Below are positions 3,289-11,240 of a stretch of 64,000 nucleotides of DNA, piece by piece; the stretch's first letter is position 1; the number at the start of each line of letters is the position of its first letter. Origin of the DNA: an uncultured Gemmatimonadales bacterium (GTDB lineage Bacteria; Gemmatimonadota; Gemmatimonadetes; Gemmatimonadales; Gemmatimonadaceae); assembly GCA_963793305.1 (NCBI GenBank), contig CAWBZV010000005.1:224001-288000 (forward strand), given 5' to 3'. The notes under the pieces were generated by a model that saw only the letters and a program-made list of their open reading frames with translations, made no database searches and was not told the origin of the DNA. Position numbers and translations under genes: made by a program.

Positions 3289-3774
3289 ATGTTGCGGATC
3301 GCTGTGCTGACGATCTCGGACGCCGGATCACGCGGCGAGCGCGAGGATACCTCGGGTAACGCAATCGCGGCCTGGGCCGCCTCGCGTGGCGCCGTCGTGG
3401 CCGCGCGGGCCATTGTGCCGGATGCGTCGGCCGCGATCGCGGCGCAACTCGTCGCCTGGTGTGACGCGGACACGTCTGACGTGGTGTTGACCACGGGGGG
3501 CACGGGATTGAGCCACACGGACGTGACGCCGGAAGCGACGCGCGCGGTCCTCGATCGCGAGGCGCCGGGGATCGCCGAGCGCATACGGGGATTGAGCCTC
3601 GAGCGATTCCCGCGCGCGGCGCTGTCTCGTGGCTTGGCCGGGCTCAGGCGGCGAACGCTGATCGTGAACTTGCCCGGGTCGCCGGGTGGAGTACGCGATG
3701 GTCTCGCGGCCCTGGACCCGATACTCGATCATGCCGTGGACATCATCCGCGGCCGGGCCACGGATCATTCATGA
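3289..3774 (+). CDS. mog: MogA/MoaB molybdenum cofactor biosynthesis protein
   Basis: LTISD, TTGGTG, DVTPEAT and NLPGSP motifs. Confidence 0.9.
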
Positions 3775-5330
3775 AGATCCTGCTGACGCTGACGGATGTC
3801 GAACCCGCGGTGCGCTTGAACGCGCAGCTCGAGCAGTCGGGCGTCGAGACAGAGGTCGTCTCGCCGCTCGACGACATTCGCTCGAGCATTCGCCGCTTCA
3901 AGCCGGACATCTTGGTCTTATCCGGCGCCTTGCTGGATCCGCAGAGCGTGTCGCTCGTCCGGGAAGAGCTGTGGGATGGGACGCCGGTCGTGGGCCTCTC
4001 CGATGTGGGCGACCCCGAGATGGCCGAGCGGCTCCGGACTTTGGGCTACACTGAGATCTACGTCAAGCCGATCGTGTTCTCGGACGTTGTTGCCGGTCTG
4101 CGGCGCCTGGCCGACCGGCGTGCGCTGGCCGTCGCGACTGGCCTGTATGGCGACTCGCCGGGCATCCGCGAGGTGCTGGTCAAGGTCGAGCAGATGGCGC
4201 CGGTGTCGAGCACCGTCTTAATAGAAGGGGAGAGCGGCACCGGGAAGGAGCTGGTCGCCCGCGCGATGCATCAATTGAGCCCGCGCCGCGGGAAGCATTT
4301 CATCGCGGTGAATGTCGGCGCCTTGCCCGAGACGCTGGTCGAAAGTGAGCTCTTCGGACATGAGAAGGGCTCGTTCACCGGAGCGGCGGAGCGTCGCATC
4401 GGCCGGTTCGAGCTTGCCGACACTGGCACGCTTTTTCTGGACGAGGTGGGAGAGATCCCGCCCAGTACGCAGGTCAAGCTGCTCCGCGTGCTCGAGGAGC
4501 GTGAGCTGACGAGGGTCGGGGGGACGCAGCCGATCAAGGTCGACGTGCGGGTGATCGCGGCCACGAATCGGCCGCTGCGCGATGCGGTGGAGCAGGGGTC
4601 GTTTCGCTCCGATCTCTATTATCGGCTCAACGTGCTCGAGATCTACTTGCCGCCGCTGCGCGAGCGGAAGGAAGACATCCCCATCCTGGTTCGGCGGTTC
4701 ATCCAGGAGTTCTCGGCGCAACACGACCGGCCATTCCACGGGATCTCATCGGACGCGATGCAGGTGTTGGTCGACTATCCGTGGCCGGGCAACGTGCGCG
4801 AGTTGCGCAATCTCGTCGAGAGCATGGTGGTGCTCTCCCCGGGACACGAGATCGGGCCGACCGATATTCCGAGACAATTTCGCGACGCGAGCGCGCGCTT
4901 TCTTCCGGTGCCCGTGGGGCCGCTCCTGCGGGGGCGTGACGGCGTCGACGGGCGCGAGATGGAGTTCATCGTGCGGAGCCTCGTGGAGCTCAAGCTCCAG
5001 GTCGAGGAGTTGCGCCGTCGGATTGACGCTGAGCGTGCGTCGCCGGGGTGGGTGGGCGAGCTGCAGCCGGTGGGCGGGGCGGGCGGACTGCCGCCGGTGG
5101 GGCTGCCGGCAGGGATCGAGCCGCGCGATTCTGCGCCAGTGCCTAATATCGTGACAATCAGCCCTGGGATGACGATGGCGCAAATTGAGCGTGCGGCCAT
5201 CGAGGCGGCTTTGAAAGAAACACGTGGAAACCGAAGAAAGGCCGCCGAGATGTTGGGGATCGGTGAGCGTACGTTGTATCGCAAATTGCGAGAGTACCAG
5301 ATTCCCGATGCAGCGATGGTGCTTGATTAA
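3771..5330 (+). CDS. Sigma54-dependent enhancer-binding protein (atypical REC, AAA+, Fis-type HTH)
   Basis: [58 protein letters not shown]. Confidence 0.95.
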
Positions 5331-5463: not shown

Positions 5464-6201
5464 TTGCCAGGTCCAGCCAACTTGTCCTCTCAACTGTCGA
5501 GTTCGCCACTGTCGATTGCAGGCAGCGTGTTGCCGATTCGGCGTGCGGAAGAGTTGTTGGCGACGTTGCCCGGCATCGTCTCGGCGAAGATCGTGGTATC
5601 GGACGCGGGCACGGTCGACGAGATTCACGTGCTCACGACGTCGGAGTACACACCAAAGCAGACGGTGCGCAACATCGAGAGCGCGTTGATCGCGCATCTC
5701 GGGATGCGCGTCGATCATCGCAAAATTTCGGTCGCCTCTTCGAGCGAGCCGCCCAAGCCGCGCGAGACGGCGATCGATCCGGCATTAGTTCAAGCCGTCG
5801 CCGAGGATCTAACTCGGCGACGTTTGTATTTCGAGGACGTCGAGGTGCGCCGGTCGCGCTCGCGCGGGGTCACGTGCCGCGTAACGCTGCGGAAGGGCGA
5901 CTCGTCTTTTGTAGGAGAGGCCGAGGGCGCGGAATCGGAGCGTGCCCGTGTCGACCTCGCTGCGCGCGCGGCCATCAAGGCGATCAGCCAGGCCGAGCGC
6001 GGCGAGCGCACGCTCGCATTGGATGGCGCCAAAGTGATTGACGCCTTCGACCGCGCGTTTGTCTTCGTCGGCGTGTCCGCTCGCGTGGGGCGCGAGAGTG
6101 CGCTCCTCACGGGCAGCTGTGAAATCAAGGAGAGCGCCGAGACGGCGAGTGTGCTCGCCGCGCTTGACGCCACGAATCGATGGATCGCGTACGGGCGGTA
6201 G
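5464..6201 (+). CDS. Conserved hypothetical protein
   Basis: 245-aa ORF (TTG start, start uncertain) with VDEIHVL..PKQTVRNIES..VDHRKISVA and C-terminal ASVLAALDATNR. Confidence 0.8.
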   Translation: MPGPANLSSQLSSSPLSIAGSVLPIRRAEELLATLPGIVSAKIVVSDAGTVDEIHVLTTSEYTPKQTVRNIESALIAHLGMRVDHRKISVASSSEPPKPRETAIDPALVQAVAEDLTRRRLYFEDVEVRRSRSRGVTCRVTLRKGDSSFVGEAEGAESERARVDLAARAAIKAISQAERGERTLALDGAKVIDAFDRAFVFVGVSARVGRESALLTGSCEIKESAETASVLAALDATNRWIAYGR

Positions 6202-6222: not shown

Positions 6223-6467
6223 AGAACGGGCGCGGTCTGTGATGGGTGAGTGAGAGGTCAGTGGCACTGCTCGTTGTGGGAGCGATGACATTCGAGCATC
6301 AGACCCTTTTCCCTCTGCCAACCAGTCACGAAAGTAGATCAAAACTGAATCCCCCGTTCGCGGACGAGCGGAGCTGAGCGGGCTTACACCCGAAATCCGA
6401 GCGGAGCCTACCACGAAGCGCATGAGGCGCAAGCCTGCATGCGACTACGACAGGGAGGTGACGCCGA

Positions 6468-6527
6468 GTGTTGAGTCTCCTGCTCAAGCTATTCGGAATG
6501 TGCGCTGTAACCATGGGTTGGGAGTAG
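6468..6527 (+). CDS. 19-aa hydrophobic peptide MLSLLLKLFGMCAVTMGWE
   Basis: GGAGGTGA Shine-Dalgarno at 6454-6461, GTG 6 nt later, TAG at 6525-6527; ends 29 nt before the HD-GYP ATG; below the ORF-track size cutoff. Confidence 0.65.
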   Translation: MLSLLLKLFGMCAVTMGWE

Positions 6528-6556
6528 TTCCGCGAACGGGGGTTCAACACCGCACA

Positions 6557-7972
6557 ATGAAACGAACTCCGATCGTAATCTTCGCAGCGGCCAGCACTAT
6601 TGTCACCTGTGCCGTAATCTGGCTGCTGTATGAGCTGGCGCCCATTTCGCTGGCCGCTAATCCCGTGGTGCTCGGCGAAATCATGGTACTCGCCGCTATC
6701 GCTGTGATCATCGATCACACGCGTGTCAAGCTGCAGGGCGGAGCGAACATTACGATCTCCTCGATGGCGCTAGCTACTGCGGCGCTGTTGGTGCCGGATT
6801 GGGCGACCGCATTGGCAGTTGCTGCATCCAGTACGGCAACTCAAGTCTTGGCGCGCAGACCAGCAGTTAAGGCTATCGTCAACGTAAATGCCACAACACT
6901 CGCCCTGGCGGTTGCTATAGCCGTTCATCGGCTTACTGGTGGCAGCTCATTGCTCCTATTCGCCAACAAGTCGCCGGTCACCGCACTCTACGCATTTTGG
7001 TGGAGGGTGCCGCTCTTCGTCGTGCTCAGCTTTTTGATTTCGGCATTTGTCGTGGGGATTGCGATTGCTTTGTCTACGAAGAGCAGTGTAGTTGATGTTT
7101 GGAAAGCGAACCTTCGCGAATCGCCCTCGGTAATGTTGATAACCACTCCGGTACTCGCCTTGTGTGCCGGTTGCGCTGTTTATCTCGGTTTGCCGGGGGC
7201 TATTCTAGTTGCGTTAATACCGATGGCTTCGATTCGACGGCTTGTCGATCAGAATAAGCAGCTAGGTGTGCGCCAGGCAGAACTTGAGCAACAAAAGGCC
7301 GCACTTGAACGGACGCACAAAGAAGTACTGCAGCTCATTGTGCTGTCGATCGAAGCTCGCGACCCTTACACGTCCGGCCATTCGCAGCGCGTACAGCACA
7401 ATGCAATGATCTTTGCGCGTGGCTTAGGCTTCGATGACATTCAGGTCCACAAGATTGGCGTAGCGGGTGTGCTCCATGACGTTGGCAAGATGGGCGCGCA
7501 GTATGCACCTATTCTTGCAAAACCCTCCAAGTTGACCGCAGAAGAGCGCGCAATCCTTGAGCGCCATCCGGTAGATGGCGCGAATTTGGTGGGAACAATC
7601 ACTGAGCTCAGCGACATAGTTGATGTCGTGCGCCACCACCACGAGAATTGGGATGGAACTGGCTACCCTGACCGACTTCAGGGTGAGAGTATCCCCCTTC
7701 ATGCGCGGATTATCCGAGTTATAGACACGATAGATGCGATGACGACCGTGCGTCCTTACCGAGCTGCACTCGGGGAGGCGGATGTGCGCTCAGAGCTAAT
7801 CAAGTACAGAGGAACGCAATTCGACCCCGCGCTTGTTGATGCTTTGTTGCAGCCGCACGTCTGGGCCACGATCTTTCCGCCTGTCGCGCCGAGTATACTC
7901 GCGCGTGAATTCACTCCACGATTTGGGGTACGGCGAGTAACCGCCGAGGGGCTCAAGATTAGCCGAGGTTAG
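6557..7972 (+). CDS. Membrane-bound HD-GYP domain protein (putative c-di-GMP phosphodiesterase)
   Basis: Multiple TM helices, coiled linker, EARDPYTSGHSQRV, LHDVGK, HHENWDGTGYP, GTQFDP; start moved to ATG 6557. Confidence 0.9.
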   Translation: MKRTPIVIFAAASTIVTCAVIWLLYELAPISLAANPVVLGEIMVLAAIAVIIDHTRVKLQGGANITISSMALATAALLVPDWATALAVAASSTATQVLARRPAVKAIVNVNATTLALAVAIAVHRLTGGSSLLLFANKSPVTALYAFWWRVPLFVVLSFLISAFVVGIAIALSTKSSVVDVWKANLRESPSVMLITTPVLALCAGCAVYLGLPGAILVALIPMASIRRLVDQNKQLGVRQAELEQQKAALERTHKEVLQLIVLSIEARDPYTSGHSQRVQHNAMIFARGLGFDDIQVHKIGVAGVLHDVGKMGAQYAPILAKPSKLTAEERAILERHPVDGANLVGTITELSDIVDVVRHHHENWDGTGYPDRLQGESIPLHARIIRVIDTIDAMTTVRPYRAALGEADVRSELIKYRGTQFDPALVDALLQPHVWATIFPPVAPSILAREFTPRFGVRRVTAEGLKISRG

Positions 7973-8020: not shown

Positions 8021-11000
8021 CTAAACCAGAAGATGCTCAGCCTTCAGCCCGAACAGGGCAGTTAAGTAAGCAGGCGCCGCATACCGCTCCCTTCGATGGT
8101 TGCGAAGGTATTCTACCAGGATGGTTTTCGCCCGAGCTTCTTGATTCTGGGCCAGCAGCGCCTTGCAAAGCGCGAAGGCGGCGAAGTCCTGATTTCCCAG
8201 CCCCTGTAGGCGTCTGAACTCGTGCTCAAGAGTCGATATTAGCTTCGTGGGCCGATGAACTCTGTCATGAGTAAACGCTAACAGCGTGGACAGAGCCAGG
8301 AGGCAGTGTTTAATGCGGCCGCCGGACTGGCTGGTTTGACTTCGCCACTTTCTGAACGCCCGTGCGTTGCATATGCGCATGGCTTCTTTCTTGGTTCCAG
8401 CGATCAGGGCAATCATCGCCCTAAGCTGCGCGATATCTATTGCCCGATAGGGAAAACGACGCCGATCTTCAGCCGCGAATAACGTGATCCAATAGATCTC
8501 GCGCTGAGCTGAACTCTCCTTGCTCGATGAATGTTTCGCCAATCTGAGTGAGTGTGGCTAGTACATAACTGCGGCTTTGCATCCACTTAACCAGTTGCAA
8601 AGCTTCGTCCAAAGCAGCGCGTGCGTCGTCAAATCGGCCGAGAAACCTCAAGGTCAGGCGTGTCGTCGGAGACTCTGCGCGAGAAAGGTTGTGGATCCAC
8701 TGAGACGCGCGTAGGTGACCAGAGCATTACCTGCTTGTGCACCCTTTTCGAGGTCGCCGACATAGGTGTCGAACACCATGGACATCGTCAACAAGTCCAC
8801 CGGTCGAACCGTGACTTCGCCCGCGAGCGAAAGAAGGCGGTGGTGGAAGTGCTTGAGGCGCATGGGGTCATGCAGATTGAATGCGCATATCATCGCGCAG
8901 ATACCCGCCCTGACACGGGTGTCAGGTGCTGCGGAGTCGTCGGCAAGACACGTTGAAGCCTCAATGAGGAGGGGTTCCACATCCTCAAGCGCGTACATCC
9001 GCGCCTCCAATACGTCAATTTGCCACTGAGACCAAGCCGAGCTCCCGATGCGGAGGGCCTTTCGCAACCGGCTAACTTCAGCGGCCGCCCGCGATACTCC
9101 TGCCAGATCGCCCACAGCGAGCAGTGCCGGGATGATGCTTTTCCTGAACCAGTACGCGCTCGTGGTCACTCTCACACCATTCGACCGCATGCCGCCACAT
9201 CGCAGTAGCTTCATGCGGAAGCCCGAGCTTGAGGAGCCGGTCGCTACACCGTCCGAGCATCGCGATCGCTTCGCGATGCAGCCCCGCCAAGCGGTAATGA
9301 TTCGCGCAATCCCAGAGCAGGCTAGAATCGTGCGGCGGTTCGAGTTCTGGATGAAGCACGTCTCGCGATTCTTCCGTGAGCCAACTGGGCTGTCGTCGAG
9401 GTAAGCCGGGCGCAAACCAGAGTTGGCGAGTGTACTATGCATGCAATGTGCGACGCCGTGCTCCCATCGTATGAAGCCCTTGTGTTCCAGGCTGTCCATC
9501 CGACTGACGAGCTCCACCTCTGGGAACTCCAATAGACGCTTCAGTCTGCCCCGTCGTCGTATGCTGTCCAAGCATCGCGATCGTCTGAAGAACGAGCAGT
9601 TCGCTTTCCGCAAGGGTCGCCAATGCGCTCGATGCAGCGCGGACTCGATCGATGGTGGTATGGGATGTCGATGTCCACAACTTTCCCAGTAACGAGCCAA
9701 CTCGTGCATCAACCGTGGAGAGCCACACGCCATCTCGATGTAGAGAGATTCCAGATCTGTACTGAGTCCGCCGTGGTGTGTTGACGTCAGGAGGCGCAAC
9801 AACTCACCCGACTCCGTCCGGGTGAGCGGGTCGAGCGCGTGCGACCGCAAGCCTCGATTGAGCGTCGCGAGCCGTGCCGCCGACCCTGATGGGTCTCGCG
9901 CGGTCATGAGCACAAGCAACGATCTGGAGTGGCTGGTTGCCACGAGGTCAGCAACAATTTCGATCGACTGTTCGTCAGCTTGATCTATATCATCGATAAC
10001 CACGAGCAGGCTGACCTCGTGAGTTACAGCCGCAATGAGATCCAGTATCGATTGCTTAATACCCGCGTAGATAAATGACGGCGCATCCTGGCCATCAGAC
10101 GCGACAGGCATCTCGAGAGACTCGCCCGTCAATTTTCGTAAGTATTGCAGGGAGGCTGGCGAGCAACCAATGGCGCCGGGAAGGCGTTGAATCGCTGACA
10201 CGACCTTCGTCAGCACCGATAACGGGCATCGTGATTCACTCGGCAAACATTCCGCGTGCACGACGCTGATGCCCTCGAGCGCCGCGGTGCGGCTGATCTC
10301 CTCAATGAGCCGAGTCTTCCCCAGCCCCGCACCTCCCTTGACAAGGTAACCACCACCCGAACTTCGTCGCATATGCCGAACCATCGTGGTGATCGCGGCG
10401 ATCGCGGATTCGCGACCAATGAGAGGCGACTCAGCGGGCGTAAATCGGTCGGAGATGCGTTGCCGCAACAGTGCACTCGGCAGTCCCACACTGGACGCAT
10501 GAGCGGCGAGATCCTTCTTGTATCGCTCCAGCAAACGCACGGCCCCGATCTTATTGCCTCCCATCGCTCTGGCTTCTGCAAGACCAAGCGTGGCTTCTTC
10601 GTTCAACGGATCGATAGCCAGGCAGCGAAGAGCGGCCGCCTCCACTTCGAGCCAACGCCCATTTTGTCGCCGGACCCCGATGGAAGCCACAAGGCCGTTG
10701 CAAATCTGGAGATTGACCTGGTCCCGCAGCTCTTGAAGCCAACGATCGAACGTCCGAGAGACGTTCGGAGAGTAGCCAGGCAAGAATTCTCTCAACAGTG
10801 GCCCGAAGTCCTGTTGGCAACTCGCAATTGCTTCGCGGTAGTCGATGCTGACGGCCTCGGCCAGTAACCCAACACTCGCGTCATTCGCGACCAGCTGGAT
10901 GCCGGCCCGCTTCAAGGCGTAAATGGTCTGACGCAGTCGATGACGAGCCTCGACGTCGCGCGTGTCTGGCCACAACAGTGATTGGAGTGTAGAGCGAGGT

Positions 11001-11152
11001 AGCAGTTTGCCCGCCTCTATGACGAGTCGTAGCGACGCCGCAAATAGCATGTGTGATCCCGGCTCGATTCTGTGCCCAGCGACTTCTACCGCGCAATCAC
11101 CCAGAGACCGCAGCGTTATCACCGATGGCTGCGAGCGCTCAGAACCGGCCAT
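8021..11152 (-). CDS. Large regulator with winged-helix/BTAD, P-loop (STAND-like) ATPase and TPR-like repeats; multiple frameshifts in the 3' half
   Basis: GAGGAG RBS before ATG 11152; LLWPD..ARHRLRQTIY, LAIDPLNEEA, GGAGLGKTRL, VVIDDIDQAD; TPR-like segments continue in other frames (ORF-track 9435-9728, 9078-9359, 8469-8651, 8021-8542). Confidence 0.8.
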
Positions 11153-11240
11153 TCCAAAACTCCTCACCAGGGTTACGACAAACCCTGTCGGTCACCGTCA
11201 GCGAAGTGTCAGAAATCGAGAACGGTGAAAATAGCAACGT

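Follow-up and report, generated by a model that had tools for sequence, protein, structure and literature searches.

A conserved hydrophobic peptide gene within a structured leader upstream of a MASE9-HD-GYP gene in Gemmatimonadota: a candidate ligand encoded next to its proposed sensor

The window analysed here, a stretch of 64,000 nucleotides from an uncultured Gemmatimonadales bacterium whose relatives place it among the Gemmatimonadaceae, encodes a hydrophobic peptide directly upstream of a membrane-bound HD-GYP protein. Judged by comparative sequence data, this ORF is a genuine, conserved 19-residue gene under selection, and it is embedded in an RNA leader with covarying helices and repeated AGCG(G/A)A boxes. 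The reading we favour, though at no better than even odds, makes the peptide a ligand or subunit devoted to the neighbouring MASE9-HD-GYP: it would set the phosphodiesterase activity of that protein, and its translation would be gated by the leader and probably by the upstream protein. The first-pass annotation had recognised the ORF and called it a signal precursor or mini membrane protein, which still appears the best class for it; it had overlooked the folded leader and the upstream protein, as well as the occurrence of the system in several phyla. The features of the locus are the following.

5464..6201, + strand: up245, a conserved protein; start uncertain, conserved from about 5530
6346..6364, + strand: 5' arm of helix P1; perfect 14-bp complement of 6351-6364 to 6529-6542
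6366..6382, + strand: AGCG(G/A)A-type boxes 1 and 2; AGCG at 6367 and 6377
6399..6408, + strand: box 3, GAGCGGAGCC; predicted to form the 5' side of helix P2 with 6457-6464, flanking tandem G-A pairs
6417..6446, + strand: hairpin P3 with a bulged A; holds a spurious ATG at 6422
6454..6464, + strand: Shine-Dalgarno sequence GGAGGTGA and a conserved CGC; predicted 3' strand of helix P2
6468..6527, + strand: peptide gene, 19 aa, MLSLLLKLFGMCAVTMGWE; GTG start, TAG stop at 6525-6527
6529..6546, + strand: 3' arm of helix P1; starts 1 nt past the stop, its G-run (6538-6542) ending 14 nt before the HD-GYP ATG
6557..7972, + strand: MASE9-like membrane domain and HD-GYP, 471 aa (HD_5, 7.5e-34); predicted c-di-GMP phosphodiesterase
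8021..11167, - strand: BTAD-STAND(AAA_16)-TPR regulator; convergent, a lineage-specific member of the cassette

The Shine-Dalgarno (SD) sequence at 6454-6461 is followed by a 6-nt spacer and the GTG at 6468. Its duplex with a generic anti-SD has an energy of -14.3 kcal/mol, a value equalled by none of the 40 long ORFs in the window (median -4.55). The next in-frame ATG of the HD-GYP gene, at 6557, lies beyond a gap of 29 nt after the peptide stop and scores only -3.2 kcal/mol. Both values agree with the earlier reading of a strong SD before the GTG and of an HD-GYP ATG with no obvious ribosome binding site. Within the same genome, 14 of 224 GG[AG]GGTGA sites precede an ORF of 14-35 codons, and three of these 14 ORFs have a Trp among the last three residues. 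Since one genome cannot rule out a chance ORF, conservation was tested, and it settles the reality of the gene.

A relative of the HD-GYP is encoded at 592 loci, and the 80 best of these made up the homologous set. In 76 of the 80, the motif GG[AG]GGTGA[AC]G[CT] is followed 5-7 nt behind by a start codon and an ORF of 16-35 codons. Loci L058 and L051 carry variant forms of the SD-led ORF, and L053 and L055, cut by contig ends, were left out of the informative loci, so that a hydrophobic ORF of 16-35 aa precedes the homologous MASE9-HD-GYP gene in all 78 informative loci. Tryptophan is the second-last residue in 67 of 77 peptides, the one from the window included, and falls within the last six in 76; it is the sole nearly invariant residue. 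The short Trp-terminal ORFs that the first-pass annotation proposed to look for are thus present, and its call for codon-level conservation is answered by 74, 51 and 132 differences at the three codon positions and a pN/pS of 0.39 (20 pairs, uncorrected; non-overlapping, of equal length and at least 65% identical in nucleotide sequence). Loci were also selected independently across the phylum with the MASE9 profile, partly from the same genomes as the 80-locus set; of the 30 best, 29 have the ORF and one is cut by its contig. The HD-GYP orthologue occurs in 88 of 151 genomes of the family, mostly in single copy; this tally includes two genomes, G007 and G034, that are marked unpublished and enter no other result. 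No further copies of the peptide or leader were found in the genome by tblastn or with an RNA model, whose one match was the locus itself.

An HD-GYP start at 6422 was ruled out, as the extension is not conserved. The 6422 frame is open for 544 aa here versus 481 and 477 aa in two same-genus genomes, where stops close the extension, and across the homologous loci the small ORF is found in all three frames relative to HD-GYP. The suspicion that the N-terminal extension was spurious is thereby confirmed.

The peptides matched no family in Pfam (two homologous peptides scanned) or NCBIfam (five scanned), and the ESM Atlas gave no usable match for a 35-aa homologue. Asp or Glu stands at position -6 in 36 of 76 peptides, the window peptide not among them, and Ala, Gly or Ser at -7 in 62 of 76. 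The Gemmatimonadota peptides are without a basic N-terminus (mean charge -0.17 versus +1.5 in the metagenomic set described below), which makes classical Sec export doubtful.

Around the ORF, gene order is fixed: up245, the leader with the peptide ORF, the MASE9-HD-GYP gene and the convergent BTAD-STAND-TPR gene. All 57 loci with at least 1.5 kb of sequence have up245 upstream, and 50 of 53 with at least 4.5 kb have the BTAD-STAND-TPR gene downstream. G+C content of the HD-GYP gene is below that of the upstream genes in 50 of 52 loci (0.56 versus 0.65). Eight loci (L014, L015, L017, L024, L028, L030, L073 and L078) carry a Gemmatimonadota-type cassette on short contigs of genomes labelled Acidobacteriota, Chthoniobacterales, Propylenella or Nitrospiraceae; here mis-binning is as likely as transfer. 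A gene of the sigma-54 activator type with an N-terminal receiver-like region, at 3771-5330 in the window, precedes up245 in 52 of the 80 loci and itself usually follows a MogA-like gene.

The 236-nt region containing the leader folds far better than its shuffles (z -3.95). Helix P1 (6346-6364 with 6529-6546) encloses both leader and ORF. Over 62 loci, the 5' arm of P1 forms a duplex of -30.4 with its own partner, -22.4 with partners from other loci and -16.6 with shuffled sequences; the corresponding values over 60 loci are -27.0, -16.9 and -16.2. RNAalifold found only eight pairs on the whole alignment, and the pairs were therefore set by hand and then counted. The resulting structure of 25 pairs shows 153 two-sided changes versus 73 +/- 10 in shuffles (0 of 500) and 76.5% paired cells versus 37-52% when slid along the 62-sequence alignment, both controls being inflated, as the sequences are related and the structure was derived from the same sequences. 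Hairpin P3 folds better than its shuffles (z under -2) in 52 of 72 loci, the window reaching -4.0, has two-sided changes in six of its eight pairs and contains an AGCG in 39 of 72 loci. Covarying P1 and P3 and the boxes are demonstrated features of the leader.

Boxes of the AGCG(G/A)A type occur 151 times per 8,613 nt on the sense strand versus once on the antisense strand, with about 0.7 per kb in the flanks; the second set gave 174 per 9,117 nt versus one. Their density in the leaders is about 25-35 times that of the flanks, for a motif defined from these same leaders. Boxes 1 and 2 are spaced 10 nt apart in 46 of 52 loci. The possibility that the boxes are DNA sites of the BTAD regulator is disfavoured, because they occur without that regulator, sit between covarying arms and recur inside P3; the 10-nt spacing fits a DNA or an RNA reading alike. 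No relevant Rfam match was found (window at E <= 10, eight loci at the gathering score, 11 metagenomic leaders at E <= 1), these same covariance-model searches gave no riboswitch match over the leader, and no sigma-70-type promoter was found ahead of it. In the leaders of L086, L118 and related metagenomic loci a two-state switch can be drawn, an AGCGGA-loop hairpin competing with a helix over the SD-to-start region.

In the predicted helix P2, box 3 pairs with the SD and the conserved CGC, and 99.2% of the aligned cells can be paired. P2 is nearly invariant and without covariation support: three of its six pairs never vary, and there is one two-sided change. The high level of translation expected by the first-pass annotation is not supported: the prediction places the strong SD inside P2, although its eight nucleotides keep a mean unpaired probability of 0.46. 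Contigs from soil metatranscriptomes (4 of 24 listed runs; unstranded) bridge up245, leader and ORF, and come from relatives mostly 90-99% alike. Two of the four end at about 6558-6573, near the end of P1, which is a weak hint of an RNA end there, and two continue to 6802 and 6864. Part of the loci have a U-run after the stem.

The upstream protein up245 gave no Pfam family above chance and no sequence match in NCBIfam or the PDB. Its model (pLDDT 86.5) combines an N-terminal alpha/beta domain resembling BolA and the C-terminal domain of CDF proteins with the fold of the LeuA/citramalate-synthase regulatory domain (3f6g: Z 9.3, rmsd 3.2, 110 residues; 6vd9: Z 8.5). Foldseek matched it to LeuA at 1e-5, with dsRNA-binding domains lower down. 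From its co-occurrence with the boxes and the resemblance of its modelled fold to dsRNA-binding units, we infer that up245 is a candidate binder of the AGCG boxes. The family is large and unannotated, with 2,621 representatives at 50% identity, and its regulatory fold of the LeuA type is not attached to an enzyme. At the metagenomic loci L158, L161 and L164, up245 occurs without boxes, peptide or HD-GYP.

The HD-GYP protein contains the catalytic motifs HDVGK, HHEN, GYP and RPYR. Its membrane domain scores 19.5-21.9 bits against MASE9, under the Pfam cut-off of 24.3, and orthologues exceed that cut-off, that of locus L012 with 34.7 bits and those in 84 of 201 genomes of the phylum. Through these relatives, the enzyme is assigned to the MASE9-HD-GYP phosphodiesterases, the group of TM1467 of T. 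maritima and HdgA of Streptomyces venezuelae; its activity is predicted. The L012 MASE9 model (pLDDT 90.2) superposes on the six-helix core of ECF S-components, a statement on predicted fold and not on function. Its best match is RibU (Z 14.2, rmsd 2.9, 160 aligned residues) and the top 14 structure matches are all ECF substrate-binding chains (Z 10.4-14.2, the next row at 8.3), although helical bundles can reach a high Z through arrangement alone. Foldseek gave the same ranking, with no S-component match at E <= 0.001 (best 0.013). ECF S-components hold a small ligand in an outward-facing pocket. MASE9 has been described as a membrane domain of eight segments with no known ligand, for which a binding site inside the membrane is likely, according to the available part of that report (10.1101/2021.11.05.467447).

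Co-folding with the HD-GYP membrane domain, as the first-pass annotation had suggested, was carried out with the 35-aa peptide of L012 and its own MASE9. The pair scored 0.52 and the best of three controls 0.00, with contacts agreeing to at least 79% between runs and a partner pLDDT of at least 63. Of 157 solved complexes, 116 reach the pass mark, as do two of 215 mismatched pairs; passing scores at or below 0.60 comprise only 18 of the solved complexes and both mismatches. The prediction weakly supports the pairing. In the 24 complete loci, the peptide was tested for co-evolution with MASE9, HD, up245, BTAD, STAND and TPR. The HD domain and up245 diverge much more slowly than peptide, MASE9, STAND and TPR. 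With the other genes controlled, no relation emerges between the similarities of peptide and MASE9 (partial r 0.10, p 0.19; peptide C-terminus -0.005, p 0.53), and a nominal one is seen between those of peptide and TPR region (raw rho 0.13, partial r 0.27, p 0.003 in a set of 12 tests; C-terminus p 0.23).

A search with up245 extended the range beyond Gemmatimonadota. Natranaerobius thermophilus and Subdoligranulum variabile have the same gene order: up245, boxes, a strong SD, a hydrophobic ORF of 28 or 25 aa, a stem arm, HD-GYP and DUF5317. The HD-GYP of N. thermophilus scores 49.9 bits against MASE9; in its record (L083:5938-7229) a frameshift near the start splits the gene. In the one actinomycete example, Nonomuraea gerenzanensis, a hydrophobic ORF of 34 aa ending in SWT precedes an HdgA-like gene, and the locus is without up245 and leader boxes. 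Named up245 homologues include Clostridia, Armatimonadetes and Atribacterota. The metagenomic set, the 80 best of 457 up245 loci, with taxonomy not given, has an SD-led ORF of 21-27 aa in 67 of the 72 loci with enough sequence, HD-GYP in 54 of 56 and DUF5317 in 28 of 36. These peptides typically read MK, a hydrophobic stretch, LAGGA and four to six further residues. All 61 distinct ones have a small-residue motif 4-6 residues before the end, 50 have an aromatic residue among the last four and 35 a Trp there, and their pN/pS is 0.35 (23 pairs). The Gemmatimonadota and LAGGA-type peptides give no significant alignment; from their shared position, leader boxes and hydrophobic-plus-aromatic pattern we infer that they form one family.

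Apart from the MASE9-HD-GYP gene, no neighbour recurs in every setting examined. DUF5317 was not found in the genome of the window (92% complete), the clusters of neighbouring genes in the metagenomic set include no BTAD-STAND gene, and neither the Gemmatimonadota loci nor the metagenomic set have a peptidase, exporter or modifying enzyme as conserved neighbour. No HdgA-like relative was found on viral contigs, and L200, a weak non-HD match to MASE9 (20.4 bits), has no upstream peptide. Among the metagenomic loci L085-L164, an HPF/RaiA gene lies directly upstream of up245 in 28, and genes of a polar amino-acid ABC transporter lie upstream of it in 7-12.

If the peptide is indeed a ligand or subunit of MASE9-HD-GYP, the following sequence of events may be envisaged. 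The hydrophobic peptide would partition into the membrane and act either intact or once cut close to its end, where the LAGGA-xxxx and A-D/E-xxx-W-x patterns hint at a cleavage site. Its aromatic C-terminal tail may then enter the predicted S-component-like pocket of MASE9, and the occupied pocket would set c-di-GMP breakdown, in whichever direction. Production of the peptide would be regulated rather than constitutive, with P2 burying the SD until a protein bound to the AGCG(G/A)A boxes, for which up245 is a candidate, frees it. A ribosome terminating at the peptide stop would melt P1, so that the enzyme would be expressed in a coupled manner with the peptide. This partnership is favoured because MASE9-HD-GYP is the only neighbour shared by all settings, because selection acts at the protein level in both sets of peptides with the Trp at -2 kept, because the ligand of MASE9 is unknown and was suggested to lie within the membrane (10.1101/2021.11.05.467447, in the part available), because the L012 model matches ECF S-components and, weakly, because of the L012 co-folding score. 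The sense-strand boxes and the covarying P1 further favour the regulatory part. The explanation is weakened by the peptide similarity, which follows TPR nominally and not MASE9, by the lack of an exporter or peptidase as conserved neighbour and by the window MASE9 score under the Pfam cut-off; gating by P2 by its missing covariation and the half-open SD; and the S-component reading by the Foldseek E-values and the general behaviour of helical bundles. Simple secretion is argued against, since the Gemmatimonadota peptides are without a basic N-terminus and no exporter is linked.

A broader version of the ligand reading is tempting, though we regard it as rather doubtful: peptide signalling in several phyla, in which a precursor of about 20 residues would give an aromatic-tailed pheromone read by a sensor of ECF S-component fold fused to a c-di-GMP phosphodiesterase, and in which a LeuA-type, ligand-gated RNA-binding protein would act on the AGCG(G/A)A boxes of a leader clasped at both ends to control how the pheromone is translated.

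It is unlikely, in our estimate, that the peptide serves only as a leader peptide in cis, with no partner of its own, so that merely the act of translation, maybe with stalling at the last codons, would matter, the ribosome melting P1 and freeing the HD-GYP start or preventing termination or RNase III cleavage. The geometry suits such a role: the 3' arm of P1 begins right behind the stop, its last G-run starts 7-13 nt past the stop in most loci and lies 11-16 nt before the HD-GYP ATG in 40 of 56, and this G-run is predicted to be unpaired at 0.02 in the whole leader versus 0.34 without the 5' arm. The poor SD of the HD-GYP gene fits as well, and the RNA contigs of two studies that end near P1 give a weak hint in the same direction. 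Arrest peptides can conserve a Trp, and the stem geometry would fit a leader or arrest peptide; a run of Trp codons is absent from the ORF. Against a role in cis alone, selection spans the whole hydrophobic helix at lengths of 16-35 residues, and the last residues vary by lineage, with no more than 35 of the 61 metagenomic peptides having a Trp among their four final residues, a poor fit to arrest or Trp-sensing. Furthermore, many metagenomic HD-GYP genes have their own GGAGG downstream of P1, Nonomuraea keeps the peptide without boxes, and the co-folding weakly supports a partner. Coupling in cis can coexist with the peptide-ligand explanation.

We hold it to be quite improbable that the BTAD-STAND-TPR regulator uses its TPR region to read the Gemmatimonadota peptide, or the D/E-xxx-W-x tail of that peptide, as an intracellular pheromone, much as Rgg or ComR do, with HD-GYP as a co-regulated output. 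The regulator is a near-constant downstream neighbour, its TPR region diverges faster than any other part (a normalised similarity of 0.09) and is the one nominally correlated with the peptide, and the Asp/Glu at -6 after the small residue at -7 recalls the Asp/Glu-led mature SHPs, as presented in the accessible part of PMC13361665. In Bacillota, in Nonomuraea and in the metagenomic clusters, however, the peptide has no such regulator next to it, the correlation stands among 12 tests and is missing with the C-terminal score, and in this assembly the regulator gene is interrupted while peptide and leader are intact. A type I toxin-like membrane peptide, silenced by pairing of the 5' and 3' parts of its mRNA, seems highly implausible to us. 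Type I toxin mRNAs share a small hydrophobic product, end-to-end pairing and a buried SD, an analogy in appearance that must be set against the single copy per genome, the fixed operon place with a signalling enzyme across phyla, the lack of antisense promoter- or terminator-like sites over the ORF, the boxes on the sense strand only and the absence of a Pfam or NCBIfam match for the seven homologous peptides scanned. There is equally little to commend a precursor of a modified peptide, whether by Trp prenylation as in ComX or by Cys/Trp cross-links. Modification at Trp or Cys had been raised by the first-pass annotation; the Trp half of that proposal has a nearly invariant residue near the terminus to point to, whereas Cys is found in only 18 of 76 distinct peptides and is missing from one of the two same-genus homologues. 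No prenyltransferase, radical-SAM or tailoring enzyme is a conserved neighbour, and Trp is missing from the last four residues in 26 of 61 metagenomic peptides.

A literature description of the peptide or leader was not found, nor was literature on DUF5317; supplements or small-protein catalogues could list such ORFs, and the peptide gene and leader are apparently undescribed. The available portions of the descriptions of MASE9-HD-GYP proteins make no mention of an upstream peptide gene, structured leader or upstream protein. Added here are the Gemmatimonadota form with its BTAD-STAND-TPR partner, the box and P2 architecture, the predicted folds of up245 and MASE9 and the co-folding result.

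Some known systems resemble parts of this one. MgrB, SafA and alike are single short hydrophobic helices acting on a membrane signalling protein; here the presumed partner, an HD-GYP enzyme, carries a sensor resembling S-components in its predicted fold, and many of the peptides, with 16-19 aa, do not reach the length of a complete transmembrane helix. Attenuation leaders and RNase III stems combine a short ORF in a structured leader with a stem arm just past the stop; in contrast, the stem here encloses the whole unit of about 200 nt with repeated AGCG(G/A)A boxes, and the peptide keeps its hydrophobic-plus-aromatic pattern. SHP/Rgg and ComS/ComR of the RRNPP type are alike in that unannotated hydrophobic precursors of about 20 aa adjoin the receptor gene; they have Asp or Glu near the start of the C-terminal part, as have some of the peptides here, as far as the accessible text goes (PMC13361665). 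They differ in that the constant partner here is a membrane c-di-GMP enzyme instead of an Rgg-type HTH-TPR factor, and in that our peptide gene is co-directional inside an operon, occurs in diderm Gemmatimonadota as well as monoderms and has no linked exporter. An Rgg-type HTH and TPR neighbour is absent: Gemmatimonadota have the BTAD-AAA_16-TPR protein of about 1040 aa, and the metagenomic set none. The CD1980.2 family of C. difficile comprises small membrane-associated proteins of 58 aa, multi-copy downstream effectors under c-di-GMP class I riboswitches, and likewise ties a small membrane protein to c-di-GMP via an RNA leader; in the available text, however, they are not encoded with a MASE9-HD-GYP gene (PMC13724677), and the leader here has no riboswitch match.

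MASE9 is a widespread orphan sensor, and the peptide is a concrete, synthesisable candidate ligand encoded next door. HdgA of S. venezuelae, the single member that has been studied, is membrane-bound and poorly expressed, hdgA mutants were without developmental phenotype and a missing activating signal was suspected, according to the part of the report available (PMC6205966); the phenotype may thus be lacking for want of the signal. With the candidate ligand in most of the Gemmatimonadaceae examined and counterparts in cultured Bacillota and actinomycetes, the proposal is directly testable. If true, it would link peptide signalling to c-di-GMP with no kinase or transcription factor between, a transporter-type S-component fold would serve as a peptide receptor, and the leader would represent an undescribed protein-responsive RNA with a candidate new family of RNA-binding proteins. 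Should the pheromone reading hold, MASE9 would gain a ligand and Gemmatimonadota, a dominant soil phylum, a form of peptide communication.

Two further genes of the window deserve mention. The BTAD-STAND-TPR gene has seven single-base coding indels relative to an intact orthologue of 1042 aa (at about 8474, 8657, 9137, 9362, 9422, 9552 and in the 9617/9632 region), while nearly all relatives have a frame of 1010-1100 aa; either assembly errors or recent decay may account for them. Between L002 and L001 or the window, the regulator is only 57-59% identical, with up245 at 98% and the HD domain above 90%, and this sequence contrast suggests an exchange of regulator alleles between genomes of the same genus. 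At 202-2316, an ORF of 704 aa, apparently continued by a short ORF at 2372-2560, gave no Pfam match, and its N-terminus is, we presume, PilX-like in appearance.
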